From positions 1,064-65,063 of the forward strand of contig JAPLLZ010000029.1 in assembly GCA_026387265.1 (NCBI GenBank): a stretch of 64,000 bases of DNA, written 5' to 3'. Each line of letters starts with the position of its first letter. The first letter of the stretch is position 1. The notes under the pieces are model-generated. The model had not been told where the DNA came from. It saw nothing but the letters and a program-made list of their open reading frames with translations, and made no database searches. Positions 1 through 64,000 of the stretch are shown here, piece by piece. Source of the stretch: Candidatus Omnitrophota bacterium. GTDB lineage: Bacteria; Omnitrophota; Gorgyraeia; Gygaellales; Profunditerraquicolaceae. The translations under genes were made by a program, and so were the position numbers.

Positions 1-1191
1 TTGGGGGGGATAGTCAGTGGTTCAATTGAAGCTGCGTCGGAAAAAGAGGCGATTGAGAAGATTAGCGCGTTAGGGTATCTTCCTATGCATTTGGAGGAAG
101 ATAAGGGTGTTGTTGCGCGGGCACCGGTTGCGGCGGTAGTGAATAAGGCTAGCGGAAGGATTAAAGGGGGCCAGATTACTATTTTTAGCCGTCAGCTTTC
201 CAGCCTTTTAAAATCCGGGGTACCGATTTTAACGGCAATTAATATTATCAGCGAACAATCAGAAAATGCCCACTTAAAAGTTGTTTTGCGCGATATCTAT
301 AATATGATTAAAAACGGCGGAACTTTTTCTGCCGCATTAGAAACCTACCCGAAATATTTTTCCGTTTTATATATTGCTATGGTGCGTACCGGTGAGAATA
401 GCGGAGCTTTAGCCGGTTCACTTTTAAGGATTGCCGATTACCGCGCTAAGCAAGAAGAGCTGCTTTCCCGTTTCCGCATGGCCATGGCCTATCCAATTTT
501 AATGGCTTTGGTAGGGGTAGCTACAGTGGTATTTATGCTTACTTTTGTTTTACCCAGATTAATGGGGATATTTTCTAATATGGGCCAGAATTTGCCGTTG
601 CCTACCCGGATTTTATTAGCGGTAAGCCAGGGGTTACGCCAATGGTGGCCTTGGATAATTTTAATTATCGTGGCCGCAGTTTTCCTGATTAAACAGCAGC
701 TTAAAACTAAGGTGGGCAAACTTACCTGGAGTGCTTTAAAATTACATATACCCATATTTGGAAAATTTGCTCTAAAAGCGGATTTGGCTTGTTTTAGCCG
801 GACCCTGGAGTTGTTAATTAAGAGTGGGTTACCGATCTTAAGAGCCCTGCAGATATCTGTGCAGGTATTAAGTAATGAAGTGATTAAAGAGAAGTTAATT
901 AAGAGCTACCGTGATTTAGAGCAAGGCGGGTCTTTTGGCCGGAGCCTGAAAGATTCTAAATTACTTCCTTTATTTATGGTTAATTTAATCAGCGTCGGGG
1001 AAGAGTCTGGAAATCTGGCTTCTGCGTTGGGTGAAGTTGCCGATTCGTATGAGCGCGATACTGATGAAATGATTAGGATTATGAGCAGCCTGCTTGAGCC
1101 TTTAATGATTTTGGTGATGGGTTTAATTGTGGGATTTATTGTAATTGCGATGCTTTTGCCGGTTTTTGAAATCAATATGATGGCTAAATAA
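1..1191 (+). CDS. gspF: Type II secretion / type IV pilus inner-membrane platform protein (GspF/PilC family), N-terminus cut by window edge
   Basis: ORF runs off the 5' edge; 396 aa; GspF/PilC layout with TM helices (AYPILMALVGVATVVFMLTFVLP, WWPWIILIIVAAVFLI, LLEPLMILVMGLIVGFIVIAMLLPVF) separating two related cytoplasmic domains; heads a pseudopilin operon. Confidence 0.85.
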   Translation: MGGIVSGSIEAASEKEAIEKISALGYLPMHLEEDKGVVARAPVAAVVNKASGRIKGGQITIFSRQLSSLLKSGVPILTAINIISEQSENAHLKVVLRDIYNMIKNGGTFSAALETYPKYFSVLYIAMVRTGENSGALAGSLLRIADYRAKQEELLSRFRMAMAYPILMALVGVATVVFMLTFVLPRLMGIFSNMGQNLPLPTRILLAVSQGLRQWWPWIILIIVAAVFLIKQQLKTKVGKLTWSALKLHIPIFGKFALKADLACFSRTLELLIKSGLPILRALQISVQVLSNEVIKEKLIKSYRDLEQGGSFGRSLKDSKLLPLFMVNLISVGEESGNLASALGEVADSYERDTDEMIRIMSSLLEPLMILVMGLIVGFIVIAMLLPVFEINMMAK

Positions 1192-1193
1192 TT

Positions 1194-2054
1194 ATGAAAA
1201 GTAATAAACAAAAGTTATGTTTATTAATTTTTTTAAGTTTATTTTGTTTGGCTGCGGGCTATCCCGGTGATTGGCTGGAGAAAAAAAGCGAACATTTTGT
1301 AGTGAATTTTACTCAGGATGAAAAGTTTGCTCAGGATGTATTGGATGCTGCAGAAAAAGATTACCGCAGGATAGCCTATGATTTAGGTTATGTGCGTTAT
1401 TCGGAATTCTGGACCTGGGATAAACGAGTTAAAATTTATATCTTTCCTGACCGCGCAGGATTCTTAAAAGCAACCGGCCAGCCTGATTGGTCAGAAGGCA
1501 TGGCTGATTATAGGAATAAACAGATCGTAAGTTATGTGTGGGGAAAGGGTTTTGTTGAATCCCTTCTGCCGCATGAAATAGCGCATCTGGTATTTAGGGA
1601 TTTTGTGGGTTTTGTAGGTGAAATACCTCTTTGGCTGGACGAAGGAGTGGCGCAGTGGGAGGAGGAGGCCAAAAGAAAAGATATGAAGGCCCTGATTCAG
1701 CGTTATTATCAGCAGGATAATTTATTATTGCTGAGCGATGTAATGAAGTTGAATATTGAAAATCTAAAAGGTAAACAAGGAGTACTGATTAGGGCAACGC
1801 GGACAAAAGACGGCCAGGACGGAGTTCTTTTCCTCAGTGCGAATAATTTAGTAGAAATTTATTATCTTCAATCCGTTGCTTTAATTGGGTATCTTATTGA
1901 AAAGTATGGTTCTAATTCTTTTTCCGGGTTTTGCCGTGAATTGCGCGACGGCAAAAATGTGGAAGAGGCCTTAAAGACAGCTTATCCTTTACATATACGT
2001 AATCTACGGGAGTTTGAGGATGGATGGAGGGAATATTTAAAGACAGGTGGTTAA
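1194..2054 (+). CDS. Secreted zinc metallopeptidase-like protein (HExxH, peptidase-MA-like)
   Basis: Signal peptide MKSNKQKLCLLIFLSLFCLAAG; HExxH site LLPHEIAHLVF with downstream LDEGVAQWEEE Glu-rich region (gluzincin-like); no closer family recognised. Confidence 0.6.
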   Translation: MKSNKQKLCLLIFLSLFCLAAGYPGDWLEKKSEHFVVNFTQDEKFAQDVLDAAEKDYRRIAYDLGYVRYSEFWTWDKRVKIYIFPDRAGFLKATGQPDWSEGMADYRNKQIVSYVWGKGFVESLLPHEIAHLVFRDFVGFVGEIPLWLDEGVAQWEEEAKRKDMKALIQRYYQQDNLLLLSDVMKLNIENLKGKQGVLIRATRTKDGQDGVLFLSANNLVEIYYLQSVALIGYLIEKYGSNSFSGFCRELRDGKNVEEALKTAYPLHIRNLREFEDGWREYLKTGG

Positions 2055-2076
2055 TCTGATTATATGGAGGTTAGCG

Positions 2077-7152: not shown

Positions 7153-7184
7153 ATCCTTGCTCGCTGCGCTCGCAAGGATTTTTC
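7153..7184 (+). promoter_or_regulatory. Leader hairpin plus T-run (terminator/attenuator-like), ATCCTTRC-N11-GYAAGGAT module
   Basis: ATCCTTGC (7153-7160), 11-nt loop TCGCTGCGCTC, GCAAGGAT (7172-7179), then TTTTT; sits between the putative promoter and the purU SD AAGGAGG. Confidence 0.45.
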
Positions 7185-8112: not shown

Positions 8113-8140
8113 TATCCGCTAACGTTTCAGTGGCGGATAA
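8112..8140. repeat. CCGCC-type hairpin repeat, copy 1
   Basis: TTATCCGCTAACGTTTCAGTGGCGGATAA; its reverse complement ATCCGCCACTGAAACGTTAGCGGAT matches 26045-26071 (ATCCGCCACTGAAGCGTTGGCGGAT) at all but 2 positions. Confidence 0.6.
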
Positions 8141-10107: not shown

Positions 10108-10112
10108 AATTT

Positions 10113-10141
10113 ATGTTAACATATAAAGAGTAATTAAGCAA
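10113..10141 (-). promoter_or_regulatory. Putative promoter abutting the prenyl synthase start codon
   Basis: Minus strand: TTGCTT, 17 nt, TAACAT, 5 nt, ATG (10107); no Shine-Dalgarno. Confidence 0.35.
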
Positions 10142-10349
10142 TTATTTTGCCTTCTTGGAAAACGAAAAAATATAATTATTGGCGATGGTTTTGGGGGATT
10201 GAGCGCTGGTTGATAGAGGAATTAATCCGGAATTCCTGTGTAATGATATTGCAACCTTCTGCCGTAAATTCAGGATTAAGTTTATTCAGGAAGAGTATTT
10301 TGTGTTTACTCGGCTGGAAAATTTGTAACCTTTTACAGAGAGGTGGCAG

Positions 10350-12461: not shown

Positions 12462-12641
12462 TTCCGCCTCAGAAGCTATTTCAAAATTCTCTAGAATTTT
12501 GAAATATTCGGCGGAATAATCCTTACTCTTTTCATTCGTAAGGATTTCGCTAAACAAGAGCTAAGGGAGCTCAAATTCGCGGACACTCCAACAAGCTGGA
12601 GCTACAACTTACGTCGGCTGCGGCTTCCGTAAGTTGTCCGC
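12462..12641. repeat. Modular multi-hairpin repeat element, long copy (modules 1-4)
   Basis: Module 1 12462-12516 (TTCCGCC / TCAGAAGCT / 12-bp stem ATTTCAAAATTC / ATTC / GGCGGAA); module 2 12519-12545 (ATCCTTAC-N11-GTAAGGAT); module 3 12558-12572 (GAGCT-AAGGG-AGCTC); module 4 12579-12641 (GCGGACA ... ACAACTTACG-N14-CGTAAGTTGT ... TGTCCGC). Modules 1 and 4 recur at 40559-40674. Confidence 0.7.
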
Positions 12642-12663
12642 TCATTTAAGGAGGATTAATTCG

Positions 12664-13626
12664 ATGTGGTCATTACAGTTAAGAATGTGGTTGCTGGTAA
12701 CTTTGCTCTTTGGAATTATTTATGCTTTATTAGTTGTAGTGGGCAGTAGTTTTTTGCACGTAAGCAGTTTTAGTTTCTACCTGATTATCTCTTTAGTCAT
12801 GATGATTATTCAGTATATGGTAGGGCCTAAAATTGTAGAGTGGAGTATGCGCGTTAAGTATATTAAGAGAGAAGAGAACCCGCGCCTGTTTCAGATAGTA
12901 GAAAGTTTAAGTGTGCGCGCTAACATTCCCATGCCTAGAATTGGTATTGCTCAAATTGATATACCCAATGCTTTTGCTTTTGGCCGTTCTCTTAAGGACG
13001 GTAGAGTTTGTGTAACTAGCGGGATATTGAATTTACTTGATGAGGAAGAGTTAAAAGCTGTTCTTGGGCATGAATTAAGCCATTTAAAGAATCACGATGT
13101 GCTTACAATTACTTTGCTTTCAGTTATTCCAATGATTATGTACCGGATTGCCTGGCAGTTTTTATTTTATGGCCGCAGGCGTGATGAGCGGGGCGGCAAT
13201 ACCGTGTTAATCGGGCTGGCAGCCTTTTTGTTTTATTTTATAACCAATCTTTTAGTGCTTTATGCTTCGCGTATCCGGGAATATTTTGCTGACTGCGGTT
13301 CTGTGCTTTTGGGTAATCATCCGAAAGCTTTAGCCTCTAGCCTCTATAAGCTGGCTTATGGATCAGCTAAGTTAAACAAAGAAGAATTGAAGCAGACTGA
13401 AGGTTTAAAAGCATTTTTTATTAATGATCCGTCACAGGGGCGCAAGGAAGTGCTGGAGATATCACAATTAGATTTAGATAAAAGCGGTACGATTGATGCT
13501 TCTGAGCTGGAGTTGTTAAGAAGGTCGAATATACGTTTAAATTTGGGGGATAGGATGTTGGAGCTTTTAAGTACACATCCAAATATGCTTAAACGTATTA
13601 AAAGACTTTCAGAATATAAAGCTTAA
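12664..13626 (+). CDS. htpX: M48 family zinc protease HtpX
   Basis: HELSHLKNHD zinc site, TM helices, C-terminal STHPNMLKRI; ATG 12664 has AAGGAGG upstream (track start TTG 12634 lies inside the repeat). Confidence 0.85.
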   Translation: MWSLQLRMWLLVTLLFGIIYALLVVVGSSFLHVSSFSFYLIISLVMMIIQYMVGPKIVEWSMRVKYIKREENPRLFQIVESLSVRANIPMPRIGIAQIDIPNAFAFGRSLKDGRVCVTSGILNLLDEEELKAVLGHELSHLKNHDVLTITLLSVIPMIMYRIAWQFLFYGRRRDERGGNTVLIGLAAFLFYFITNLLVLYASRIREYFADCGSVLLGNHPKALASSLYKLAYGSAKLNKEELKQTEGLKAFFINDPSQGRKEVLEISQLDLDKSGTIDASELELLRRSNIRLNLGDRMLELLSTHPNMLKRIKRLSEYKA

Positions 13627-13644
13627 AAGAGCTTGAAAAATAAC

Positions 13645-13690
13645 AAAACGGGGCCGTTTCAGCGATATTGATACGGCCCCGTTTTCTTTT
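13645..13690 (+). terminator. Rho-independent terminator after htpX
   Basis: AAAACGGGGCCGT (13645-13657) / ACGGCCCCGTTTT (13673-13685) GC-rich stem followed by a T-rich tract. Confidence 0.8.
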
Positions 13691-16403: not shown

Positions 16404-17094
16404 AGAAATAATTAAAGTCAACTCGATTTGTAAGAGTTATCAGGATAACTTAACTAACCTGGAAGTATTAAAAAATATTAATTTTTCTGTTTTGGCGGGT
16501 GAATTCTTGGTAATTCAGGGGCCAAGCGGCGCAGGAAAGTCGACGCTTTTACATATTTTAGGCGGTTTGGATAATCCGACCCAAGGGAAAGTTTATTTTC
16601 AAGGAGCGGATATTTATGCCATAGATGAGAATAAGCGTTCTGCTTTGCGCAATGAGAAAATAGGTTTTGTTTTTCAGTTTTTTCATCTTTTGCCGGAGTT
16701 AAATGCTTTAGAGAATGTTTTGTTACCGGGAATTTTAAAATCCTGGTGGGATAGGAAAAAAAGCTTAGGCAAGGCGCTTGAACTTTTAGAAAGATTAGGA
16801 TTATCCTCCAGGTTAAAACATCGGCCGGGTGCTTTAAGCGGCGGAGAACAACAGAGAGTGGCGATTGCCCGGGCGTTAGTCAATTGTCCGCAGCTTTTAC
16901 TTTGTGATGAGCCTACGGGTAATTTAGATTCAGAGAATGGTAAAAATATCCTGCAGCTTTTAATTGAGCTTAACCGGGCTCAAAAGATTACCATTGTGAT
17001 GGTTACTCATGATAAAGATATTGCCTGTGGAGCCGGAAGAATTATTCATTTGAAGGATGGGGTTATTCTAGGAAATAATAATGATAAACACTAA
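16396..17094 (+). CDS. lolD: Lipoprotein-releasing ABC ATPase
   Basis: Walker A GPSGAGKST, signature LSGGEQQRVAIARAL, Walker B LLLCDEPTGNLD; overlaps lolE by 8 nt. Confidence 0.85.
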   Translation: MSEEIIKVNSICKSYQDNLTNLEVLKNINFSVLAGEFLVIQGPSGAGKSTLLHILGGLDNPTQGKVYFQGADIYAIDENKRSALRNEKIGFVFQFFHLLPELNALENVLLPGILKSWWDRKKSLGKALELLERLGLSSRLKHRPGALSGGEQQRVAIARALVNCPQLLLCDEPTGNLDSENGKNILQLLIELNRAQKITIVMVTHDKDIACGAGRIIHLKDGVILGNNNDKH

Positions 17095-17217
17095 ACCCGA
17101 AAAACGAAACTCTAAACAAACTCAAAATTCTAAACTCGAAACTCAAAACATTGGTTTAAAAATTTGAGTTTTGGATTTAGGATTTGTTTAGGATTTAGAG
17201 TTTAGTGTTTAGAGTTT
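17089..17217. repeat. Inverted heptamer-array element, copy 1
   Basis: Left arm of CNCTAAA/CTCGAAA-type heptamers (17089-17147), 15-nt centre, right arm of TTTAGRR/TTTGAG-type heptamers (17163-17217); begins in the last lolD codons, ends 4 nt before the ilvE SD. Confidence 0.7.
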
Positions 17218-17233
17218 ATTAAAGGAGGTAAGC

Positions 17234-18646: not shown

Positions 18647-19699
18647 ATGCAGATTAATGATTTAATTAATCATACTAGTGAATGGCTTAAAGGGACGGGG
18701 CCGCATTCGGATGTAGTTATTTCCAGCAGGATCCGCCTGGCTAGGAATTTAAATAAATTTCCTTTTCCACACTGGGCATCTAAGGCACAGCTAAATGAGG
18801 TTTTGGAAAAAACCAGTCAGGCGATGGGAAAAGTAGAATTGTTGAGTAAGGCTGCGCTTTTTATTCTGGCAAATTTAGATAGTATTGATAAGCAATTTTT
18901 AGTGGAAAGACATCTGATGTCGATTGAACATACTCAAAAAACAGAGCAGAAAGCGGTTCTGGTGAATGATGAAGAAAATATCTCAGTAATGATTAACGAA
19001 GAAGATCATTTGCGCATTCAGCTTATGCAGTCGGGCTTTAATCTTTTTGAAGCATGGGAGATTATTAATGGTATTGATGATGAGCTAGCTAAGCTGTTGG
19101 ATTATGCGTTTCTGGAGGATTTTGGTTATCTTACCGCTTGTCCGACGAATACCGGTACAGGTATGCGTGGTTCAGTAATGCTGCATTTACCCGCATTGGT
19201 AATGAGCCGGCAAATTGAGCGGGTGCTGGCGGCGATTGCTAAATTGAGCTTTACTACGCGCGGGCTTTACGGAGAAGGTACACAGGCCAGCGGTAATTTT
19301 TTTCAGATTTCCAACCAGGTTTCTTTAGGACATAGCGAAATGGAAATTATTGAAAATATTAATGGCCTCATCCGGCAGATTATTGAACAGGAAACGCAAG
19401 CCCGGGATATTATGTTGACTAAGAGCAGGGCGATTTTAGAAGACAGAATTAACCGTTCGTTAGGAATTTTAAAAAGTGCCCGGATAATTACCAGCCAGGA
19501 GACGATTGAATTGTTGTCTATGGTAAGATTGGGTAGTGATTTGGGAATGATTAAAGATATTGACCGGCGTACGATTAATGAACTTTTCATTATTACTCAG
19601 CCGGCGCATTTACAGAAGCTGGAGAATGTTAAGCTTTCATCGGACCAGAGGGATTTAAAGAGAGCGGAGTTGATTCGGAAAAAATTGAATTTATTATAA
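18647..19699 (+). CDS. mcsB: Protein arginine kinase McsB
   Basis: Phosphagen-kinase catalytic domain with CPTNTGTGMR; 350 aa; sits between mcsA and clpC. Confidence 0.9.
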   Translation: MQINDLINHTSEWLKGTGPHSDVVISSRIRLARNLNKFPFPHWASKAQLNEVLEKTSQAMGKVELLSKAALFILANLDSIDKQFLVERHLMSIEHTQKTEQKAVLVNDEENISVMINEEDHLRIQLMQSGFNLFEAWEIINGIDDELAKLLDYAFLEDFGYLTACPTNTGTGMRGSVMLHLPALVMSRQIERVLAAIAKLSFTTRGLYGEGTQASGNFFQISNQVSLGHSEMEIIENINGLIRQIIEQETQARDIMLTKSRAILEDRINRSLGILKSARIITSQETIELLSMVRLGSDLGMIKDIDRRTINELFIITQPAHLQKLENVKLSSDQRDLKRAELIRKKLNLL

Positions 19700-19807
19700 G
19701 GTCCTTTCTTATTTTGTGTTTGAATTATGTAGAGACGCAAAATTTTGTGTCTCTACAATACACAAAGGAAGGTTTACCCCTTTGGGGTAATGATTAGGAG
19801 AATAACC

Positions 19808-26116: not shown

Positions 26117-26117
26117 T

Positions 26118-40674: not shown

Positions 40675-40677
40675 TTA

Positions 40678-42868: not shown

Positions 42869-43536
42869 TTAACTAGCTAAAGTTAAAAAGAGCACTTTTC
42901 TGGCTCCGGCTGCCTTTAAACATTTGGCTGCCTCATTTGCGGTAGCGGCAGTGGTTAAGACATCATCAACAAGCAGTAAATTTGTATTATTAATTAATTC
43001 CGGTTTGGTGACCATAAAACATCCCTCAATATTGCGGCAACGTTGTTGAAAAGTAAACTCAGTTTGAGTTTTTGTAGGTTTGATACGTATGAGAACATTA
43101 GCTAAGACCCTCTTTCCGAATTCATTCGCTACTTCTTGGCTTAAAATTTCAGCTTGGTTAAATTCTCTTTCTCTTTTGCGGCTGCTATGTAGCGGTATAG
43201 GAATAATGAAATCAAGATGTTCAATTGGCAATTGGTAATCTTGGATAAAAGTATTCATTATTTTTCCCAAAGGTTTACCCAGGTAATCTTTACCGGAATA
43301 TTTAAATTCATGGATTAGTTTTTTTACAGAGCCGGAATATGCGCAAGGACTAAAGGCCCGGTCAAAATAGAAATCTTTTTTGTATTTCCCACAGCTTGGA
43401 CAAGTATTTTTTTCTATTGCTTCAGGGCTAAGGTGCCTGCCGCCTGTTGGTTAGGTGTCCGGATTATATTTTTACAAACTAAACAGCAGTTTGGATAAAA
43501 TAGATCCTTTAAGCCTTTTAATAACCCCCGCAACAT
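42869..43536 (-). pseudogene. comFC: ComFC-like phosphoribosyltransferase, frameshifted near the N-terminal zinc finger
   Basis: ATG 43536 opens MLRGLLKGLKDLFYPNCCLVCKNIIRTPNQQ... which stops at 43414. A second frame, open from 43450, reads ...EKNTCPSCGKYKKDFYFDRAFSPCAYSGSVKKLIHEFKYSGKDYLGKPLGKIMNTF... through the PRTase motif LLLVDDVLTTAAT to 42869. Confidence 0.6.
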
Positions 43537-43542
43537 AAAGAT

Positions 43543-43571
43543 ATAATATCAATGAAAATTACGTTTGTCAA
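43543..43571 (-). promoter_or_regulatory. Consensus promoter abutting the comFC ATG (leaderless geometry)
   Basis: Minus strand TTGACA (43571-43566), 17 nt, TATTAT (43548-43543), 6 nt, ATG 43536. Confidence 0.55.
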
Positions 43572-43576
43572 AGTAA

Positions 43577-45439: not shown

Positions 45440-45513
45440 TATTTGCGGGTCCTGCCGCAGGAGCGCCTCTCGCCAAATTTGGCTCGAGGCATCTTGCGCG
45501 TCACCCGCAAATA
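45440..45513. repeat. GCGGG-TCCTG...CACCCGC nested-hairpin element, copy 2
   Basis: Outer stem TATTTGCGGG / CCCGCAAATA; inner TCCTG-CCG-CAGGA, GCCTC...GAGGC around the palindrome GCCAAATTTGGC. Confidence 0.6.
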
Positions 45514-45524: not shown

Positions 45525-46898
45525 ATGGAAAAGATTTATTTAGCCTCCAATTCTAAGGCCAGAAAGAAATTATTAGAAAAATTTGGCCTGAAGTTTAAAA
45601 TCCTACCTTCTAAAGTTAAAGAGCAAACTCAACGCGGTAATTTATCATATCCTCAACTTGTGCAGAAGAACGCCCGTAAAAAAGCAGAAGAAGCAGCAGC
45701 TCGAGTAACTGGTGGAATTATTATTGCCGCCGATACTATTTGTGTGCAGAATGGTAAGATCTTCGGTAAACCGAAGAATATGGCAGCTGCCCGCCGGATG
45801 CTTCAACAATTATCCAGTAGGCCGCAATGGCTATACACCGGTTTGGCACTAATTAAAAAAACTAAAAGTAAACAAAAACTCCTGCTAGATTATGAAAGAG
45901 CAAGAGTTTATATGGATAAATTAAGCCCGGCGCAGATTGATAATTATTTTAAACAGGTTTCTCCTTTAGATAAAGCCGGTAGTTTTGATATCCAGGGCAA
46001 AGGGGCATTTTTTATTAAGCGAATCGATGGGTGTTTTTATAATGTAGTCGGACTGCCTTTGAGAAAATTATATCTGATGCTTAAAAAGTTTGATGTAAAA
46101 ATTCTTTCGTTTTTTTTAACGGCCACCAGTTGTTTATTAACTGCCGTGGTTTTGTCTGGCTGCTCTACGGAATATAATCTTGCTACTAAACAGGAGGAGA
46201 AATATTATTATAGTACGGATAAGGAAGTCCAGATGGGCCAGTCAATTAACCGTAGGGTAGAAAAAGAATTAAAATTTTCCGCAGATCCATTACAGCAAAA
46301 ACGCGTGGAGGATATTGGCAAAAAGGTAGCTGCCGTCAGCGATAGAAAAGAGATTGATTATTATTTCCGGGTTTTAGATGATGATGAGGTTAACGCTGTA
46401 TCTTTACCCGGAGGGTATGTTTATATTAACAGTGGATTGTTGGATAAAGTGGCTAATGATGATGAGTTGGCCTGTGTTTTAGCACACGAGGTAGGCCATA
46501 TTGTTGCCCGGCATAGCATAAAGAAACTTCAGGCGATGCAGAGTTATTCTATTTTAAGAGTGTTAGTGGCTGTAGCTCCTGGTGCTTCAGAGGTAGGCAG
46601 CGCCGCAGATGCTGCTTTTACTCAATTTTTGCTTGGCTATAACCGCGAAGATGAGCTATTAGCAGATCAACTGGGTGCCCGTTATGCTAAATTGGCTGGT
46701 TATGATCCACATAGCATGATTACTTTTTTAATTAAGTTGCAGGATATCAACCGTAGGATGCCGCTTAGAGAACAGTCGTATTATAAGACCCACCCTTATG
46801 TTCCTGATCGGATTAGAGTAGTTAAGCAGGAACTGGGGGAGCAGATTGATTTTGGGGACTACATCAATATTGAACAAGAAAGCCACCAGCCCCGTTAG
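45525..46898 (+). CDS. Maf nucleotide pyrophosphatase domain fused in frame to an M48 metalloprotease lipoprotein
   Basis: Residues 1-190 Maf-like (IYLASNSKARKKLLE, AGSFDIQG, YNVVGLPL). An internal ATG 46077 opens the lipoprotein signal MLKKFDVKILSFFLTATSCLLTAVVLSGC, followed by an M48 domain (HEVGHIVARH, THPYVPDRI). No stop codon lies between the two parts. Confidence 0.75.
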   Translation: MEKIYLASNSKARKKLLEKFGLKFKILPSKVKEQTQRGNLSYPQLVQKNARKKAEEAAARVTGGIIIAADTICVQNGKIFGKPKNMAAARRMLQQLSSRPQWLYTGLALIKKTKSKQKLLLDYERARVYMDKLSPAQIDNYFKQVSPLDKAGSFDIQGKGAFFIKRIDGCFYNVVGLPLRKLYLMLKKFDVKILSFFLTATSCLLTAVVLSGCSTEYNLATKQEEKYYYSTDKEVQMGQSINRRVEKELKFSADPLQQKRVEDIGKKVAAVSDRKEIDYYFRVLDDDEVNAVSLPGGYVYINSGLLDKVANDDELACVLAHEVGHIVARHSIKKLQAMQSYSILRVLVAVAPGASEVGSAADAAFTQFLLGYNREDELLADQLGARYAKLAGYDPHSMITFLIKLQDINRRMPLREQSYYKTHPYVPDRIRVVKQELGEQIDFGDYINIEQESHQPR

Positions 46899-46954
46899 AG
46901 ACAGGCTGCCGAAGGCAGCCGTTAGTTACCCTAGGTGTCTTGTCTCTAACGGGG
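46890..46954. repeat. 64-65-bp palindromic element (CCCCGTTAGAG...CTCTAACGGGG), intergenic copy
   Basis: 14-bp terminal inverted repeats CCCCGTTAGAGACA / TGTCTCTAACGGGG, internal hairpin GGCTGCC-GAA-GGCAGCC. Contains the upstream stop TAG (46896-46898) and ends on the G of the downstream GTG start. Confidence 0.75.
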
Positions 46955-48069
46955 TGAATAGAATAATTGCTCTCTTGGTAATTTTTTTGTTAACCTTTTG
47001 CCGTTTACCGGCAGGAGAGATTTCCGATAAGAAATATATGAAAAATAATGTGGCGCATTTAGACAAGGTAAATTTTGATAACCCTTTTGGGGTTTTGGAA
47101 TTTTTGCATTGGAATCATTCTTGGAATAATTATAAATATTCCAGCCAACGCGATTTGGAAGAAGTGGTTTCCCTTATGCGTGATGCTGGTGTGGGTTGGG
47201 TAAGGTGGGATTTTTTATGGTCAGATATCGAAGCTCAGGAGGGGAAGTTTGACTTTACTAAATATGACAATATTGTTAAGGTGCTTAAAAATAATGATAT
47301 TCATATTTTAGGTGTTTTACATTACAGTACAAATTGGGCTTCTTCCTGCGGCGAATGGAATTGTCCGCCTGAAGATAACCAGAAATTCGTAAATTACGCA
47401 AGCAAAGTTATCCAGCGCTATAAGGATCAAGTGAAGTATTGGGAGGTTTGGAATGAACCGGATTCAGCTATCTACTGGAAAAAGCAGGATAGTCTTAAGT
47501 CTTATTGTATTCTATTGAAAGAGGTTTATTTGGCAGCTAAAAAAATAGACCCTGATTGTAAGATTCTAAATGGCGGCATTGCCAATGGTTTAGTTAGTAT
47601 TAATCATTTGTATGATAATGGAGCAAAAGATTATTTTGATATATTAAACCTGCATTTTTTTGAAAGCCCTTTACATGGAAAAAATGGTATAAAGGCGGTA
47701 ATTAGTTATCCTAATCTTGCTTATAAAATAATGGTGCGTAATGGTGATGCGCATAAGAAAATCTGGATAACGGAGATTGGCTGCCCGGGGGTAGAATCCG
47801 GATTAAAGACAGATAATTGGTGGATGGGAGAGAATCCTGATGAGCGCCAACAGGCTGAATGGGTAAAAGAAGTTTATGGCGAATTGTTAAAAAATCAGCA
47901 GGTGGAAAAAATTTTCTGGGCCTTTTTCCGTGATACCAAGGAACATTGGGGTAATGGTGTTGATTATTTTTGTTTAGTGCGTTGGGATTATTCCACCAAG
48001 CCTTCCTTTGAAGCTTATCAAAAGCGTTATCAGGAGTGGAAAAAGAATAAAGCCGTAAGGCCTAAGTGA
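46954..48069 (+). CDS. Secreted clan GH-A (TIM-barrel) glycoside hydrolase-like protein
   Basis: GTG 46954 gives the signal peptide (M)NRIIALLVIFLLTFCRLPAG; YWEVWNEPD (acid/base Glu) and KIWITEIG (nucleophile Glu) signatures; the track start 46846 reads through the repeat. Confidence 0.65.
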   Translation: MNRIIALLVIFLLTFCRLPAGEISDKKYMKNNVAHLDKVNFDNPFGVLEFLHWNHSWNNYKYSSQRDLEEVVSLMRDAGVGWVRWDFLWSDIEAQEGKFDFTKYDNIVKVLKNNDIHILGVLHYSTNWASSCGEWNCPPEDNQKFVNYASKVIQRYKDQVKYWEVWNEPDSAIYWKKQDSLKSYCILLKEVYLAAKKIDPDCKILNGGIANGLVSINHLYDNGAKDYFDILNLHFFESPLHGKNGIKAVISYPNLAYKIMVRNGDAHKKIWITEIGCPGVESGLKTDNWWMGENPDERQQAEWVKEVYGELLKNQQVEKIFWAFFRDTKEHWGNGVDYFCLVRWDYSTKPSFEAYQKRYQEWKKNKAVRPK

Positions 48070-57116: not shown

Positions 57117-57164
57117 TTAAACTTTTTACCTGTTTTTCTGGATATAATTTCCTTTTAGTGTTTT

Positions 57165-57193
57165 ATTATACCACAGGTAATTTTGTTAGTTAA
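57165..57193 (-). promoter_or_regulatory. Putative promoter of the 57.1-48.1 kb operon
   Basis: Minus strand TTAACT (57193-57188), 17 nt, TATAAT (57170-57165) with TG at the extended -10 position (TGGTATAAT). Confidence 0.5.
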
Positions 57194-57492
57194 ACTATTT
57201 GAATTATTAAAGCACTGAACTTGTTTTATACCCTGTGTCTAAAAACTGCGATAGGGCGTCTACTTATTAACTTATCCAAACAGATTTTTTAGTGAATTGA
57301 TTATAGGAAACTCAAAAAATTCGGTGAGACTTAGTGAAAGTTTATTAAATACTACGTATTGCTGGAGGGGATGGAGTTTCCCGTTTTTCCAGATTAAACC
57401 TTTTGGGAACGGAATCCCGCTTGAGTATTTATCTAATGAGCGGGAGAACCACCAATAATAAATGCGGGAGAAGTATCTCTCCATGAGTTTTA

Positions 57493-57573
57493 TGCGGGAG
57501 GAGGGAGTTGAACCCTCAAGGGTTACCCCACACGCTTCTGAGACGTGCGCGTATGCCATTCCGCCACTCCCGC
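57493..57573 (-). tRNA. tRNA-Leu (anticodon CAG)
   Basis: Hand-folded: acceptor GCGGGAG/CTCCCGC, D arm GCG-GAATGGCATA-CGC, anticodon arm CACGT-CTCAGAA-GCGTG, 13-nt variable arm, T arm GAGGG-TTCAACT-CCCTC, discriminator A; CCA not encoded. Confidence 0.9.
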
Positions 57574-57850
57574 AAAATTGATAACTTTTAATCTTTTATC
57601 TAGCGAAATCCCTGATCAAACGTTAGAAAGATCAAGGATGATCCCCGCAAGAATTGTGTGGGGTTCTTGAATTGATTAAGTATATCTTAGCCTGCTAATC
57701 CTGTCAATTGGATATCACCTTTTAGCTTTAAATAAATTGCGGTTGAGTTTTTTTGCTGTTATAATATATGACTTAGTATATTTTGAAATAATGATTCTAC
57801 CTGTTAGGTATAGGTTAATTTGTTTATAAGTTGCAGGAGGATATGGATTA

Positions 57851-58807
57851 ATGTTTTTAGAACAGTTTAAAATTACCGGCCTGGCGATGGTTCAGATATT
57901 TCTTTTGGGTGGTTTAGGCTATATTTTGGTTAAGAAAAATATACTTTCCCATGAAGGCTTGGATGCTTTAAGCCGCTTAGTGATCCAGATTATTTTTCCG
58001 GCTTTAATTATTGTTCAGATGCTCAAGAATTTTCGTTTTGATCTTTATCCAAATTGGTGGGTTTTTCCGTTAGTCAGCCTGATGATTACGGTTACGGGTT
58101 TAATTGTCGGCTGGCTGTTGCTTAAGTTTTCAGGGTTAAAAACGCATAAGTTACAGTTTTTAAGTTTAGTGGCTTTTCAAAATTCAGGTTATCTTCCTTT
58201 AGCGATGGCTGCGGCGATATTTTCCGGCCAACAAGCTAATGATATATTTATTTTTATCTTTCTGTTTTTATTAGGGTTTGATTTAGTAGCCTGGTCATTA
58301 GGTATTTATATGCTTACTTATGAAAAGCAGGTTAAATTTAAACTACAAAGCCTTTTCAGCGCCCCGGTAATCGCAAATTTAACCAGCCTGGCGTTAATTG
58401 CGCTGGGTTTAAATAAATTTATTCCGGATGTTTTGTTTAAGCCTTTATCTATGGTGGGTAATTGCACTTTGCCTTTAGCCATGTTAGTTGTGGGGGGTAA
58501 TGTGGCTTTAGTACAACTAAAGAATATCGATTGGAAAACAACCTTGATATTTTTGTTGGGAAAGTTGATTATTCTTCCGGTATTGGGTATAGTGGTTGTT
58601 TTAAAACTTGCACTGCCGAATTTATTGGGTTTTCTGATTGTGATGCAACTGGCGATGCCTTCGGCAACTTCTTTATCCGTGATCATCCGCCGTTTTAACC
58701 GGCAGGATGCTTTAATCAGTCAAGGTGTATTTTTTAGCCATGTTATCGGCTTGTTTACTATGCCTGTATTTTTAAGTTTATATTTATACTGGGTTATGCT
58801 AAAATGA
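57851..58807 (+). CDS. AEC (auxin efflux carrier) family transporter
   Basis: 318 aa, about 10 TM helices in two inverted halves, typical AEC N-terminus. Confidence 0.8.
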   Translation: MFLEQFKITGLAMVQIFLLGGLGYILVKKNILSHEGLDALSRLVIQIIFPALIIVQMLKNFRFDLYPNWWVFPLVSLMITVTGLIVGWLLLKFSGLKTHKLQFLSLVAFQNSGYLPLAMAAAIFSGQQANDIFIFIFLFLLGFDLVAWSLGIYMLTYEKQVKFKLQSLFSAPVIANLTSLALIALGLNKFIPDVLFKPLSMVGNCTLPLAMLVVGGNVALVQLKNIDWKTTLIFLLGKLIILPVLGIVVVLKLALPNLLGFLIVMQLAMPSATSLSVIIRRFNRQDALISQGVFFSHVIGLFTMPVFLSLYLYWVMLK

Positions 58808-59259
58808 ACAACACAACTGCTACTAACCGTAAAGCGTACAGAGATTATGAGGTTTTGGAGTCTTTAGAGTGCGGGATTGAATTAAAAGGCTCGGAGGTTA
58901 AATCTTTACGCGATGCCAGGGTTAACCTGAATGATAGTTTTGCCCGTTTTGAAGAGCAGGAAATATTTTTATATAACGCCCATATCAGTCATTACGCGCA
59001 GGCCAGTTATTTAAACGTTAATGCGGACCGGCCGCGCAAGCTGCTTCTGCATAAGAAGCAAATCCAAAGAATAAATGGCAAGCTTACCCAAAAAGGCCTA
59101 ACCTTAATTCCGTTGAAGATTTATTTTAATGACCGGGGTTTTGCCAAAGTAGAGCTGGCGCTTTGTAAAGGCAAGAAGCTTTATGATAAGCGGGAAGATG
59201 TTAAGCGCAGGGAAACTGATAAAATATTGCGCCGAGTAATCAAGAATAGAAGAGGATAA
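58804..59259 (+). CDS. smpB: SsrA-binding protein
   Basis: NRKAYRDYEV, GSEVKSLR, LLLHK motifs; tmRNA immediately downstream. Confidence 0.95.
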   Translation: MNNTTATNRKAYRDYEVLESLECGIELKGSEVKSLRDARVNLNDSFARFEEQEIFLYNAHISHYAQASYLNVNADRPRKLLLHKKQIQRINGKLTQKGLTLIPLKIYFNDRGFAKVELALCKGKKLYDKREDVKRRETDKILRRVIKNRRG

Positions 59260-59289: not shown

Positions 59290-59710
59290 GGGGGTGAAAG
59301 GGTTCGACTTAAGATATGTCGCTTAAGAGCAGCATGCCGCGGATGTAAGGTTAGCCGCGTTAACAATCCTTGCACAATTCAAACGCAAACACAAAAACAC
59401 CAGTGTTCACAAACCGATTGGCAGCGTTACCGGGTTTTCAGCCGGTAGCATTTCCAGCTGGTTGCGTACCAGTCTTAGCGTTTAATTAAACGCTAAGCCT
59501 CTAGCTGTCCTGCCTACGGGATAGATTAGAGCTCAAGTAGGATAGTCCCGGCGGTTAGCCTTCCAAACCGGGGCAAAATCGAAAAGGCTGCATCTTGCAA
59601 ATCCTGCCGGGTAGGAGTTGCAAGGTTAAGAATAAATTACCAGGCTAAGCATGTAGCGGTTTTTAGGTGATTACTTAAGGACGGCGGTCCGATTCCGCCC
59701 ACCTCCACCA
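59290..59710 (+). ncRNA. ssrA: tmRNA (SsrA)
   Basis: 5' GGGGGTGAAAGGGTTCGAC; 3' tRNA-like end GGACGGCGGTCCGATTCCGCCCACCTCCACCA. The acceptor pairs GGGGGTG/CACCTCC with the G3-U pair. Tag ORF 59385-59489 has its stop in the loop of the CTTAGCGTTT/AAACGCTAAG hairpin. Confidence 0.9.
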
Positions 59711-60901: not shown

Positions 60902-61689
60902 GTTCAATTGGCGTTTTTGATTCTGGAGTAGGCGGGCTTACAGTAGCCAGAGAAATAATCCGTCAACTACCCAATGAAAATATAGTTTACTTTGGTGATA
61001 CTGCTCGCGTTCCTTATGGGATTAAGTCGCCTCAAACCGTAATCCGTTTTTCTATTGAAAATATTTTATTTTTATTAAAGCACGATGTTAAATTAATTTG
61101 CGTTGCTTGTAACACTGCATCTAGTTTTGCGCTTCCGGTAATCCGGAATAATTTCCGTGTTCCGATTATCGGCGTAATTACCCCTGGAGCCAGAGAAGCA
61201 GTTTATGCTTCACAAAATAAGCGTATTGGAGTAATCGGGACCAAGGGAACGATTAAGAGCCGTACATATGAAACAGAAATTAAACAGCTTGATCCTAAAG
61301 TTAAAGTAACGGCTGTGGCTTGTCCTTTATTTGTTCCTTTTGTGGAGGAAGGCTGGCTTTCCGGAGAAGTAGTATTAAACGTGGCCAGGCAATATTTAAA
61401 ACCGCTGCGCCAGGCTGGTGTGGATACAGTAATCTTAGGCTGTACACATTATCCTTTGCTTAGGCCGGTAATTCAGGAAGTTTTGGGCAAAAATGTTATT
61501 TTGATTGATTCTGCTAAGCAGGTAGCTTTTGAAATAAAAAAGATTCTGACTAGTGAAGATTTATTTAATCGCGGCAAGGGCGGCAAACATAAATTTTACG
61601 TCAGTGATAATCCTGAATGGTTTAGTTCTCTAGCTCATCGGTTTATGGGGACTAAATTGATGAACGTAAAGAAGGTGGAAAATGTATAG
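60898..61689 (+). CDS. murI: Glutamate racemase
   Basis: IGVFDSGVGGLTV, catalytic Cys motifs VACNTAS and LGCTHYP. Confidence 0.92.
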   Translation: MSSIGVFDSGVGGLTVAREIIRQLPNENIVYFGDTARVPYGIKSPQTVIRFSIENILFLLKHDVKLICVACNTASSFALPVIRNNFRVPIIGVITPGAREAVYASQNKRIGVIGTKGTIKSRTYETEIKQLDPKVKVTAVACPLFVPFVEEGWLSGEVVLNVARQYLKPLRQAGVDTVILGCTHYPLLRPVIQEVLGKNVILIDSAKQVAFEIKKILTSEDLFNRGKGGKHKFYVSDNPEWFSSLAHRFMGTKLMNVKKVENV

Positions 61690-62128
61690 CTTAAAAGTAC
61701 AGGGGACTTTTAGTTCTGCGCATAATTTAAGAGGCTATAAAGGTAAATGTGAAGATTTGCATGGGCATAATTGGGTAGTGGAGATAGTGGTTAAATCTAA
61801 GAGGCTAGATAATATCGGCATGGTTTTGGATTTTAAATTCCTGAAGAAAAAATTAAATGTTTGTTTAGAGCAGATGGATCATAAGTATCTTAATCAACTG
61901 TCTTATTTTAAAAAAGTAAACCCCGTTAGAGGCAGGGCGCCGAAGGTAACCGACGGCTGCCTGCGGCAGCCTGCCTCTAACGGGGTAAATCCAACCTCTG
62001 AAAATATTGCTAAATATGTTTATGATCAACTTAAATCTTCGATTCCTTTATTAAATTGTGTAACGGTCTGGGAAAATAGTACAAGCAGCGCTACCTATGA
62101 ACCTAGCCCTTCCTCGGGTAGGGATTAA
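61682..62128 (+). CDS. queD: 6-carboxy-5,6,7,8-tetrahydropterin synthase QueD, carrying a 23-codon repeat-derived insertion
   Basis: FSSAHNLRGYKGKCEDLHGHNW, MDHKYLN, NPTSENIAKY motifs; 148 aa versus the roughly 120 aa I recall as typical. Confidence 0.85.
   Translation: MYSLKVQGTFSSAHNLRGYKGKCEDLHGHNWVVEIVVKSKRLDNIGMVLDFKFLKKKLNVCLEQMDHKYLNQLSYFKKVNPVRGRAPKVTDGCLRQPASNGVNPTSENIAKYVYDQLKSSIPLLNCVTVWENSTSSATYEPSPSSGRD
61921..61984. repeat. 64-bp palindromic element (CCCCGTTAGAG...CTCTAACGGGG), copy inside queD
   Basis: Termini CCCCGTTAGAGGCAGG / CCTGCCTCTAACGGGG; the internal part (GGTAACCGACGGCTGCCTGCGGCAGCC) matches the reverse complement of the internal part of 46890-46954; flanked by GTAAAYCC 69 bp apart. 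Confidence 0.8.
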
Positions 62129-62149: not shown

Positions 62150-62808
62150 TGAAGAGTAAAATTTCTAAGACTGCGGTAGTGCTTTTATCCGGCGGATTAG
62201 ATTCGGCTACAGCTTTGTATTTAGCTAAAGCTAAAGGATATAAATGCCACGCTTTAATTTTTGACTATGGGCAAAGGCATAAACAGGAAGTTATTTGTGC
62301 AGTAAAGATCGCCCGGGCCAGCGGCTGTGCTTACCGGATTTTAAAAATAGGATTTCCCTGGAAAGGTTCTGCGCTTTTAGATAAAAAAATTAATGTTCCG
62401 GGGGGAATTACCCAGGGCGTTCCGGTTACTTATGTGCCGGCGCGTAATATTATTTTTTTAAGTTTTGCTCTATCTATGGCAGAAGTAATTAAGGCACAGG
62501 CGATATTTATCGGGGCACACGCACAGGATTATTCCGGGTATCCGGATTGCCGGCCAGCTTTCTTTAAGGCTTTTATACAAATGGCTAAAGCTGGGATTGC
62601 CGCTAAAAATAGAATTAAAATTTTAGTTCCCCTTTTAAATATGAATAAATCACAGATTATTCGTTTAGGTAATAAACTTGGTGTACCATTTAGCCTTACC
62701 CGTTCATGCTATCGGGCAGGCAAAAAACCGTGTCAAAAATGCGATAGTTGTTATTATCGTGCTAAAGGTTTTAAGGAGGCGGGGCTGATAGATCCGTTAG
62801 TTAATTGA
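62149..62808 (+). CDS. queC: 7-cyano-7-deazaguanine synthase
   Basis: PP-loop AVVLLSGGLDS, C-terminal zinc Cys cluster CYRAGKKPCQKCDSC. Confidence 0.92.
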   Translation: MKSKISKTAVVLLSGGLDSATALYLAKAKGYKCHALIFDYGQRHKQEVICAVKIARASGCAYRILKIGFPWKGSALLDKKINVPGGITQGVPVTYVPARNIIFLSFALSMAEVIKAQAIFIGAHAQDYSGYPDCRPAFFKAFIQMAKAGIAAKNRIKILVPLLNMNKSQIIRLGNKLGVPFSLTRSCYRAGKKPCQKCDSCYYRAKGFKEAGLIDPLVN

Positions 62809-63479
62809 TTAAAGCCAGGATTTCCGAAGTATTCGATAGCGTACAAGGTGAAGGCCTGTATTTGGGAGAGAAGCAGATTTTTGTGCGTTTTTTTGACTGT
62901 AATCTCAGCTGCATTTATTGTGATACTAAGCTGGACCGGTTTACGGAGTATGAACCAAAAGAGCTTTTTGAAGAAATTAGCCTTTATCGCGATAAGTATC
63001 ATTCTATTTCTTTTACCGGGGGTGAGCCGCTTCTTTATGCGGATTTCTTGAAGGAGATCTTTAAGCTTACTAGTGGGCGTGGCCACCGGCATTATCTGGA
63101 AACAAATGGAACCCTGTTTTTTGAGCTAGAGAAATTAATCGACCATATTGATATTATTGCGATGGACTTGAAATTCCCCAGCTCATCCGGGATGGGTAAT
63201 CTTTGGCAATTACATCGTAAATTTTTAAAAATTGCCTCCAAAAAAGAAGTGTTTCTTAAAGCAATTATCTGTCAGGCGACTTATGAGGAAGATTTAAAAG
63301 AGGCTTTGGCGATAATTAAAGAAATAAGCCCGGCCAGCGTTTTAGTTCTGCAGCCGAATAGCTATGAGAATCAGGCGGTTTTACATGAAAAAATGATGAA
63401 TTTCAAAGAGATTGCTACACAACAGGGGGTTACCACTTGCGTTATCCCCCAGATTCATAAAATAATGGGGTTAAAATGA
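62805..63479 (+). CDS. queE: 7-carboxy-7-deazaguanine synthase (radical SAM)
   Basis: FDSVQGEG, CNLSCIYCDT cluster motif, FTGGEPLL. Confidence 0.85.
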   Translation: MIKARISEVFDSVQGEGLYLGEKQIFVRFFDCNLSCIYCDTKLDRFTEYEPKELFEEISLYRDKYHSISFTGGEPLLYADFLKEIFKLTSGRGHRHYLETNGTLFFELEKLIDHIDIIAMDLKFPSSSGMGNLWQLHRKFLKIASKKEVFLKAIICQATYEEDLKEALAIIKEISPASVLVLQPNSYENQAVLHEKMMNFKEIATQQGVTTCVIPQIHKIMGLK

Positions 63480-63910
63480 AGAATAAACTAATAAAAATGT
63501 CCGCCACAGTGCATGGTGGAAAGAAATCTGATTATGAAGGTTTACAAAATAATGTCAGGAAATTAAAGACACCGGCAATTGAGGTTTGGCAAAATCAATA
63601 TGCGGATAAGGTTTATGTTATTAACTTGGATATTCCGGAGTTTACTTGTATCTGTCCTAAAACCGGTTTACCGGATTTTGCGGTTATCCGAATTGAATAT
63701 TCTCCGCTTAAGTTTTGTGTGGAGCTAAAATCTTTTAAACTTTACACCATATCTTTTCGCAATGTGGGGATTTTTCATGAGCATCTGATTAATAAAATGC
63801 TGGAGGATTTTGTGCGCGCAGTGAAGCCGCGCTGGGTAAAGATTAGTGGTGTTTTTAATCCCCGCGGCGGAATTACTACTACTGTTTCAGCGGAGTATAA
63901 AACTAGATGA
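63476..63910 (+). CDS. queF: NADPH-dependent 7-cyano-7-deazaguanine reductase (unimodular type)
   Basis: Catalytic Cys motif CICPKTGLPDF and ELKSFKLY QueF motif. Confidence 0.9.
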   Translation: MKNKLIKMSATVHGGKKSDYEGLQNNVRKLKTPAIEVWQNQYADKVYVINLDIPEFTCICPKTGLPDFAVIRIEYSPLKFCVELKSFKLYTISFRNVGIFHEHLINKMLEDFVRAVKPRWVKISGVFNPRGGITTTVSAEYKTR

Positions 63911-64000
63911 GAGAACTAAAGGCAGTAAGGATAACCCAGGCAGTAATGGATTTAGTAAAACAGGCTAATTTTTTACTGCGTAAAGATGTTTTATCGGCTT
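63907..64000 (+). CDS. 5' fragment of a CDS, possibly Fe-S type hydro-lyase (class I fumarase / tartrate dehydratase) alpha subunit
   Basis: ATGA overlap with queF; MRELKAVRITQAVMDLVKQANFLLRKDVLSA resembles N-termini of that family; only 31 codons visible. Confidence 0.35.
   Translation, partial: MRELKAVRITQAVMDLVKQANFLLRKDVLSA

Follow-up and report, generated by a model that had tools for sequence, protein, structure and literature searches.

Are the short hairpin-forming repeats between the genes of an uncultivated bacterium mobile elements, or do they serve the genes that they separate? The question is raised by 64,000 nt of Candidatus Omnitrophota DNA (assembly GCA_026387265.1, contig JAPLLZ010000029.1, positions 1,064-65,063, forward strand), referred to here as the window, in which a first-pass annotation had listed six families of palindromic repeats, (i) to (vi), together with a pair of smaller hairpins. 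We consider it likely, at a probability of roughly 0.8, that gene junctions and three coding sites of the window were colonised by non-autonomous hairpin-forming mobile elements, with a mosaic arrangement like that of bacterial interspersed mosaic elements (BIMEs). Family (i) is a bona fide miniature inverted-repeat transposable element (MITE) with inverted termini, a 4-bp target duplication and an empty site, and families (i) and (v) are spread over many uncultivated phyla rather than being specific to one genome.

Repeat searches and pattern scans recovered all of the listed repeats, in place or a few bases off. Self-BLAST of the window, a check that had been named beforehand, was compared with 20 dinucleotide shuffles, and the repeats exceeded chance: the best shuffle score was 39.1 bits, and ten self-matches of the window, comprising pairs between copies as well as self-palindromes, lay above it. 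The top matches reached 81 bits for family (v), 70 and 66 bits for (i), 47 and 45 bits for (iv) and 45 bits for (ii), plus others, and hits of at least 30 bits numbered 34 in the window against 2-19 per shuffle. Pair (iii), with 37 bits, and pair (vi) were not significant within the window alone, and support for them comes only from related genomes. Every element folded far better than its shuffles (z -4.1 to -9.1), and four families were found again in other genomes. The proposed kinship with palindromic families of the MITE, repetitive extragenic palindromic (REP) or Rickettsia palindromic element (RPE) type was thus supported by statistics, recurrence and conservation of structure.

Family (i) inside and between genes

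Family (i) has the form CCCCGTTAGAG(A)...CTCTAACGGGG, with exact 11-nt inverted termini that extend to 13-14 bp. The 11-nt termini are exact in both window copies, and the window contains four terminus hits where 0.45 were expected. One genome per GTDB species was scanned with the pattern CCCCGTTAGAG-N30-58-CTCTAACGGGG, corresponding to elements of 52-80 nt, and the family was found in at least 119 loci of these representatives, all of them metagenome-assembled genomes (MAGs). According to the record titles, about 65 of the loci belong to Patescibacteria, also called the candidate phyla radiation, 24 to Planctomycetota, 16 to Omnitrophota and four to Nitrospirota, while six fall in single other lineages and four are unclassified; here and below, the taxon labels of related sequences are those of the deposited MAGs. 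Some copies lie on MAG contigs of 0.4-1.7 Mb. The density was two copies in the 64 kb of the window and up to three per 8 kb elsewhere; MAGs of Jorgensenbacteria and Nealsonbacteria had 6-7 copies in each genome sampled, and one Jorgensenbacteria MAG carries near-identical 80-nt copies. Lineages rich in copies include Jorgensenbacteria MFKK01, Nealsonbacteria JAUWYA01 and Omnitrophota JAUSCZ01.

Exact 4-bp direct repeats flank 80 of the 122 non-redundant copies, whereas re-paired flanks gave an expectation of 8.3±2.7 matches and a maximum of 18 in 2000 trials. The duplicated tetramers (TTTA, TAAA, TTGA, TCAA, TTCA, TCCA and similar) correspond to a YNNR target, mostly TNNA, in a weakly palindromic g|TNNA|c context. 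One copy (L053) is nested inside another and has its own TGAA duplication. The duplication, the inverted termini, the nested copy and the empty site described below are the reasons why we conclude that family (i) transposes. Mechanistically, a DDE-type transposase acting in trans would make a staggered 4-bp cut at YNNR, preferably within g|TNNA|c.

Between the termini the sequence is variable, ranging from about 7 to 90 nt, and searches with loosened termini gave elements from about 29 nt (CCCCGTTAGAAAAATTTTTTCTAACGGGG) up to 108 nt. Some interiors are purine-rich and unstructured; others form two hairpins closed by the terminal stem. In ten 65-nt copies of the two-hairpin class, chosen for their fit to the fold from Omnitrophota, Planctomycetota and a Terrybacteria MAG, 94% of the cells were paired compared to about 40% in slid controls, and both sides had changed in 11 of the 14 interior pairs. 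Compensatory changes that keep stems paired, as claimed in the first-pass annotation, were accordingly found in family (i), and also in families (iv) and (vi).

Family (i) appears to be adjusted to coding sequence. Counted over copies that are related and not fully independent, the length plus four is divisible by three in 77 of 122 (p≈2e-11), and the common lengths (53, 56, 59, 62, 65, 68 and 80 nt) all leave a remainder of two when divided by three. Frames that are open for at least 40 codons on each side surround 31 of the 122 copies, and 29 of these 31 are in frame. The termini contain a stop in one frame only, which leaves two of the three frames open on either strand, reading xPVR[DG]...SNGV or TPLE...SLTGF. 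Because the termini are open in two frames and, at the dominant lengths, element plus duplication is divisible by three, copies within genes could persist as short surface loops, or provide the end of a gene with a stop or start codon.

The annotation had also noted that copies touch or enter coding sequence, and one of the two family (i) copies in the window (65 nt, 61921-61985) does lie inside queD (61682-62128), where it encodes NPVRGRAPKVTDGCLRQPASNGV in frame and is flanked by a TAAA duplication (61917-61920 and 61986-61989). Compared to E. coli QueD and to Omnitrophota orthologues of 118 residues, the window protein has a 23-residue insertion between conserved blocks, and despite it the residues of the catalytic core are invariant. 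In an AlphaFold model the QueD core is kept and the insertion is a low-confidence coil, with a predicted local distance difference test score (pLDDT) below 50 at residues 85-101. At the DNA level an empty site was found in an orthologue, L122, which reads AAAAAGA-TAAA-TCCTAC where the window reads GTAAA-[65 nt]-TAAATCC. TAAA is thus present once in L122 and twice in the window, which argues against the flanking repeats being part of a longer conserved motif. In a further Omnitrophota genome, L123, this site is occupied by a degenerate copy of 44 nt, and other QueD homologues carry variants of the insertion of 16-23 residues, the filled and empty forms of the protein measuring 134, 141, 147 and 118 residues. 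The variants are compatible with recurrent insertion at a hot spot and also with a single old insertion that was later lost in places.

The second window copy (65 nt, 46890-46954) lies where a Maf-M48 gene (45525-46898) meets a glycoside-hydrolase-like gene. The former gene ends with a TAG that belongs to the left terminus of the copy (46896-46898), and the copy is also open in the frame of the downstream open reading frame (ORF) 46846-48069, in which it reads PVRDRLPKAAVSYPRCLVSNGV. An identical copy was present on an independent Logan contig of 1.6 kb (L001). The upstream ORF is itself a fusion of a Maf nucleotide pyrophosphatase domain and an M48 peptidase domain.

In six other genomes (L005, L023, L051, L060, L076 and L085) family (i) is inserted in the leader of a prepilin. 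The insertion point is Gly-Phe-Thr, encoded by GGN-TTT-ACN and thus matching g|TTTA|c, and the insertion rebuilds the sequence ...SLTG|FTLIELL. As the G|FTLIELL cleavage motif is rebuilt, the inserted peptide would leave with the leader. An adjacent paralogous pilin without the insertion is present in L060 (6754-7874), and the most recurrent neighbours of family (i) are genes of the pilus and type II secretion system (T2SS), namely T2SS-E, T2SS-F and pilin. Family (i) may represent an undescribed pan-phylum MITE superfamily adapted to life inside genes. We put this forward tentatively, at slightly less than even odds; it draws on the roughly 13 bp fixed at each end, the 3-nt length ladder, the two open frames and the target that matches the prepilin site.

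Other identities of family (i) were tried and rejected. Distant pairs of termini with matching duplications turned out to be separate MITEs or a local duplication of a pilin gene. Integron attC sites have RYYYAAC ... GTTRRRY core sites; family (i) has the reverse order of cores (GTTAGAG...CTCTAAC), is dispersed and has target duplications. A CRISPR reading of the repeats was also rejected.

Heptamer palindromes and hairpin mosaics at gene junctions

The two window copies of family (v) are heptamer palindromes at 17085-17218, separating an ABC-ATPase gene from an aminotransferase gene, and at 28978-29114, in the cysE/cysS spacer. The former holds the upstream stop codon and folds with -40.7 kcal/mol (z -5.6); the first three bases of the latter are the TAA stop of cysE. 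Aligned over 141 nt (17085-17222 and 28978-29118), the copies are 77% identical, and both extend from the upstream stop codon to the ribosome-binding site of the next gene. Their hairpins of about 135 nt are built from (Y)TAAAYY repeats in the left arm and RRTTTA(R) repeats in the right arm. Family (v) is accordingly made up of long AT-rich palindromes of degenerate heptamers, which occupy spacers and, elsewhere, helices of the 23S rRNA.

BLAST relatives of family (v) were found in Planctomycetia, Jorgensenbacteria and Berkelbacteria MAGs, those of the Berkelbacteria MAG lying within a 23S rRNA gene. When metagenomes were scanned with a 22-mer of the right arm, it matched at least 120 contigs; 59 of the 122 matches listed had an inverted arm within 450 nt, forming palindromes of 76-483 nt (typically about 130-160), and relatives often have small extra hairpins nested inside. 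Another copy is found inside the 23S gene of contig L136, and other copies adjoin tRNA genes. The 23S genes of L109 (1-3656) and L136 (522-4807) exceed the Rfam model in length by about 1.0-1.4 kb and contain heptamer palindromes, and that of L109 also has a family (i) copy at 2410-2471. Compared to the E. coli 23S sequence, one of the L109 insertions appears to be in the L1-stalk region and not at the classical helix 25/45 sites.

In seven of the contigs with family (v) relatives (L131, L147, L151, L153, L162, L173 and L182) a conserved stretch lies about 150 nt upstream of the heptamer array. It has a TATAAT-like box and reads ...ggtataata...ccgccatagagatggcagat...gcggag...attaagcctcgtttggagcatttgaaaatttgattttcga, followed by a one-armed heptamer array. 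The stretch resembles a structured RNA that has escaped annotation; in L131, L153, L162 and L182, no Rfam family reached gathering score in it.

Family (vi) consists of short hairpins with fixed ends. The copy at 36303-36374 (plus strand; GCGGGGTCCTG...GCCACCCGC) lies in the spacer between a DUF362 gene and an mtnA-like gene and has an outer stem ATTA/TAAT; the copy at 45440-45513 (plus strand; GCGGGTCCTG...GTCACCCGC) occupies the spacer 5' of the Maf-M48 gene, has the stem TTATTT/AAATAA and folds with -47.2 kcal/mol (z -8.7). The pairing of these two copies by the first-pass annotation was correct, and what they share was narrowed: the pattern match (36307-36370 and 45445-45508) has only the termini GCGGG(G)TCCTG...CACCCGC in common, and not the interior. 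Six clean copies were found in four genomes and in both orientations, with fixed and asymmetric ends, GCGGG(G)TCCTG...GTCACCCGC, and a covarying outer stem.

Three Omnitrophota contigs, L244, L245 and L246, with CysS proteins 68-74% identical to that of the window, keep the window's gene order from clpC to alr and allowed the same junctions to be compared. The cysE/cysS spacer measures 140 nt in the window, where it holds family (v), 341 nt in L244 and 181 nt in L246, both with a (vi)-like hairpin, and 11 nt in L245. This 11-nt spacer is the empty site of the family (v) copy. At the cysS/tmk junction the genes overlap in the window; the spacer is 198 nt in L244 and 146 nt in L245, both with family (vi) in reverse, and 456 nt in L246, with a reverse (vi)-like hairpin. 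Between DUF362 and the mtnA-like gene there are 92 nt in the window (family vi), 0 nt in L244, 9 nt in L245 and 294 nt in L246, where the content was assigned to none of the families, and between radA and the PIN gene 184, -4, 44 and -4 nt, respectively. Junction spacers thus alternate between 0-11 nt and 90-456 nt, and one junction may hold different families. The spacers of L245 (3527-3678) and L246 (8907-9174) also contain tandem hairpin modules, TTGCG(Y)(R)GGTGTGC...CTTGTG..., which are not present in the window and may be another family.

Families (ii) and (iii) had been listed separately. Both are real, and their separation did not hold: they share the stem ATCCGCCA/TGGCGGAT with each other and with a third hairpin at 26116-26136, and so form one family, (ii/iii). 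The ATCCGCCA hairpin has five copies in the window, and the 8-mer occurs nine times compared to 1.6 expected. Copies (ii) at 36150-36172 and 26095-26117 are reverse-complemented and identical at 23 of 23 positions; copies (iii) at 8114-8138 and 26046-26070 are mutually inverted and 92% identical, the former lying between convergent genes. Hairpin (ii) at 36151-36171 (plus strand; 21 nt, TCCGCCAT-GTTTT-ATGGCGGA) lies in the DUF362 gene, where it is an exact 7-codon in-frame insertion (AMFYGGK) in a DUF362/4Fe-4S protein. These residues are missing from all three orthologues, both in the protein alignment and in the codon-level comparison. The other hairpins form a cluster of three in the radA/PIN spacer (26046-26136, comprising 26046-26070, 26096-26117 and 26116-26136), and one more ATCCGCCA hairpin was found in the mlaF/mlaD spacer of L245. 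The ORF start at 26109 is spurious and created by the hairpin cluster. A GGAGG ribosome-binding site precedes the true start of the conserved PIN protein, 26157, and the cluster is therefore intergenic. Families (vi) and (ii/iii) were recovered only in the close syntenic relatives, and no match was obtained when (ii), (iii), (iv) and (vi) were compared by BLAST with the loci that carry family (i).

Family (iv) was present at both of its locations, and its status as a family rests on these two copies. The long form (12462-12650, plus strand) has a 5' hairpin TTCCGCC...GGCGGAA and a 3' module ending in GCTTCCGTAAGTTGTC, and carries an inserted ATCCTTAC hairpin (12519-12545) as well as further small stems. 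The short form (40559-40686, plus strand), between the convergent genes alr and lptG, is without the middle 55 nt or so. The modules 12465-12517 and 12602-12646 align with 40561-40613 and 40636-40679, and between the copies three pairs of the 5' stem have changed in a compensatory manner. Family (iv) was not found outside the window. The two smaller ATCCTTRC hairpins are also present, as weak evidence with two copies: ATCCTTGC-N11-GCAAGGAT at 7153-7179 resembles the insert at 12519-12545, from which it differs by a compensating G/A and C/T change. Taken as a type, families (vi), (ii/iii) and (iv) are short REP-like hairpin modules found in either orientation and joined into mosaics. A second M48 peptidase gene (12634-13626) is directly downstream of the long family (iv) element.

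Alternative explanations and known systems

Several points weigh against the view that all these repeats are mobile elements. No autonomous element or transposase with family (i) termini was found in the 0.83 Mb flanking the loci, nor did any transposase recur among the ORFs encoded at the 119 loci. The DDE-type mechanism is drawn from the 4-bp duplication alone, its enzyme being inferred and not found. The copy at 46890 has no visible target duplication (ccag/tgaa), none could be defined for family (v), and none was clear for (vi), (iv) or (ii/iii). The length and in-frame statistics include related copies, and the covariation set was picked by its fold. The copy numbers given for the source organism cover the 64-kb window. 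We infer the existence of the transposition enzymes, and any present-day activity; mobility of families (iv) and (v) is suggested by distribution and one empty junction, and not by duplications.

The hairpins could instead be functional RNAs selected by the host, such as terminators, attenuators, RNase III sites or stabilisers, that do not move. All of the elements fold strongly, they lie exactly between the stop codons and ribosome-binding sites of co-directional genes, compensatory changes keep their stems, and the heptamer hairpins lengthen 23S helices, comparable to intervening sequences excised by RNase III (PMC11270868). However, orthologous junctions are often empty or held by a different family, family (vi) points both with and against transcription, and family (i) has duplications as well as copies that lie within ORFs or within further copies. 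Over the first 20 kb, 17 terminator-like sites were called compared to 19.0±4.7 in shuffles, and none was on a repeat hairpin. Among the spacers read, a T run follows only the hairpin at 13642-13688, which is not a repeat family, and the terminator reading was rejected. This makes the functional explanation unlikely as a general one. Individual copies may have been secondarily exapted, and effects of the hairpins on mRNA (termination, RNase III processing, stabilisation) would be plausible by-products of mobile elements.

A narrower alternative is that (ii/iii), (vi) and (iv) are REP/BIME elements proper, moved as single strands by a REP-associated tyrosine transposase (RAYT) encoded elsewhere, and that only family (i) is of DDE type. 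Their size (21-75 nt), imperfect palindromes, clustering, mosaic structure, both orientations and lack of target duplication agree with this, and a RAYT gene is not expected in any given 64 kb. However, the 5' GTAG tetranucleotide of REPs is missing next to the stems in the copies read, no RAYT domain was detected among the Pfam-scanned ORFs of the window or in the Pfam labels of four related loci (about 78 kb in total), and the in-frame intragenic copy at 36151-36171 is atypical for REPs. We regard this version as doubtful, with about one chance in four. Chance matches of AT-rich DNA, or artefacts of assembly or binning, are by far the least probable explanation. Pairs (iii) and (vi) on their own would allow it, and the related sequences all come from MAGs or metagenomes. 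Against this, shuffles never reached the scores of (i), (ii), (iv) and (v), an exact 22-nt signature is abundant in two independent collections (at least 119 loci and at least 120 contigs), copies are found on contigs of up to 1.7 Mb and within intact conserved genes with the frame preserved, and an independent Logan assembly reproduced copy 46890 exactly. We thus prefer colonisation by non-autonomous mobile elements.

The first-pass annotation had not recognised any described family, and we also found no match in Rfam, Pfam, NCBIfam, a plasmid collection or the full-text literature. Rfam searches of the window and of nine loci (gathering and E-value thresholds) yielded only tmRNA, tRNA and rRNA, apart from chance-level miRNA-type hits over family (v). 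The plasmid collection contained no match to families (i) and (v). Viral contigs gave 1, 3 and 0 matches for families (i), (v) and (vi), respectively, and phage carriage is therefore not the main reservoir. In the full-text literature nothing relevant was found on the terminus or heptamer strings or on MITEs in candidate phyla, and a 2024 review on MITEs did not mention these uncultivated lineages.

In function the system is like RPE, MITE and REP/BIME elements, yet by sequence it is a member of none. RPEs are short palindromic selfish elements found in frame in unrelated protein genes (PMC10969869). Family (i), for example in QueD, shares with them an in-frame genic insertion tolerated as an extra peptide loop. 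It differs in being shorter (about 29-108 nt compared to roughly 100-150 nt), in its 4-bp target duplication, conserved 11-bp termini and free interior, and in occurring across many phyla rather than in one genus. The family (i) peptides had no NCBIfam or Pfam hit at E<=10, the RPE models being assumed to be in those libraries.

With the Correia/NEMIS, ERIC, RUP, Nezha and similar MITEs family (i) has in common that it is non-coding with terminal inverted repeats and a target duplication, that it can form hairpins in transcripts, and that it is found at gene junctions, to which it can contribute regulatory or coding signals. In Correia elements the inverted repeats measure 26 bp and the duplication is TA, in contrast to the 4-bp YNNR duplication of family (i). 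Classical MITEs are near-identical within a genus, whereas in family (i), which has no known parent insertion sequence, conservation is confined to the termini. Four-bp target duplications and ends starting with CC(C) are typical of DDE transposons of the IS1380/piggyBac and IS5/IS701 types, and a link between IS1380 and piggyBac has been discussed in the literature. By analogy, such an enzyme may be taken as a lead, and as a lead only, to the mobiliser of family (i); the target of the latter is YNNR and not TTAA or YTAR, and no such transposase was found beside the copies.

REP/BIME elements resemble families (ii/iii), (vi) and (iv), which are imperfect palindromes of 20-75 nt in mosaic intergenic clusters and in either orientation; the differences are the lack of a GTAG head, of a RAYT gene in view, and the one in-frame coding copy. 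Relatives of family (v) extend 23S helices as long hairpins, like the 23S intervening sequences, and differ from these in being found in mRNA spacers of Omnitrophota and Planctomycetota as well. The cyanobacterial short tandemly repeated repetitive (STRR) sequences are tandem heptamers in spacers. Family (v) likewise consists of heptamers in spacers, but its unit, YTAAAYY, is different.

The kind of element is therefore familiar, but MITEs, REPs and RPEs have been described almost wholly from cultured bacteria and genus by genus. Unusual here are the conservation of termini only, the 3-nt ladder of lengths and the spread across uncultivated phyla, including their rRNA genes. Two superfamilies of elements would be common to most of the major uncultivated phyla of groundwater and sediment, and if the superfamily reading is true it would imply an unrecognised shared transposase or repeated DNA exchange among uncultivated lineages. 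Gene calls are inflated or split by such elements through false N-termini (26109), borrowed stops (46896) and extra loops (QueD, DUF362, pilins). The elements may also fragment short-read assemblies; the Logan contig with copy 46890 is just 1.6 kb. They record where the proteins of streamlined genomes tolerate small insertions. The fixed termini of family (i) make a census easy, and insertion polymorphisms could be used as strain markers.

The window and its other genes

The window has a G+C content of 40% and a strongly positive GC skew, and nearly all of its genes are on the plus strand. By Pfam it is an ordinary housekeeping segment with type IV pilus/T2SS components, lytB, lysS, clpC, mlaEFD, radA, ispDF, cysE/cysS, metG, lptFG, radical-SAM enzymes, queDCEF, and smpB beside the tmRNA. 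Five housekeeping-looking ORFs (18647-22231 and 31188-34394) were judged by their sequence and the Pfam labels of syntenic loci, and two que ORFs at 62805-63910 by the labels on the orthologous L123 genes. In agreement with the annotation, no transposase, integrase or Y1/RAYT domain was detected by Pfam on the scanned ORFs of at least 100 aa. The nearest QueD and CysS homologues are labelled Candidatus Omnitrophota and are only about 75-82% identical, which suggests a poorly sampled lineage of this phylum.

Three divergent gene pairs have long spacers (57117-57850, 734 nt; 43271-43576, 306 nt; 10108-10349, 242 nt), in which neither the repeat families nor any Rfam family could be detected; the first contains a tRNA-Leu(CAG) on the minus strand. 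The cysS gene (29121-30629) has a 12-nt tandem repeat, TAGTAGTAGTTC, in 3.6 copies at 30426-30470, which encodes a run of 14 serines near the C terminus of CysS. The window protein has 502 aa, compared to 455-514 aa (mostly 460-490) among the listed relatives. A PilZ-T2SSE ATPase gene lies between mlaD and radA in L245 (4315-5700) and L246 (3983-5368), with none in the window or in L244.

The smpB gene (58804-59259) is just 5' of the tmRNA (59290-59710). The usual tmRNA tag ends in ...LAA. For the window tmRNA, ARAGORN predicted the atypical tag AKPLAVLPTG*, which may be the result of a mis-called resume codon. In L123 a GIY-YIG gene is present between smpB and an amidase gene, and a large serine recombinase is encoded about 6 kb downstream of queD.

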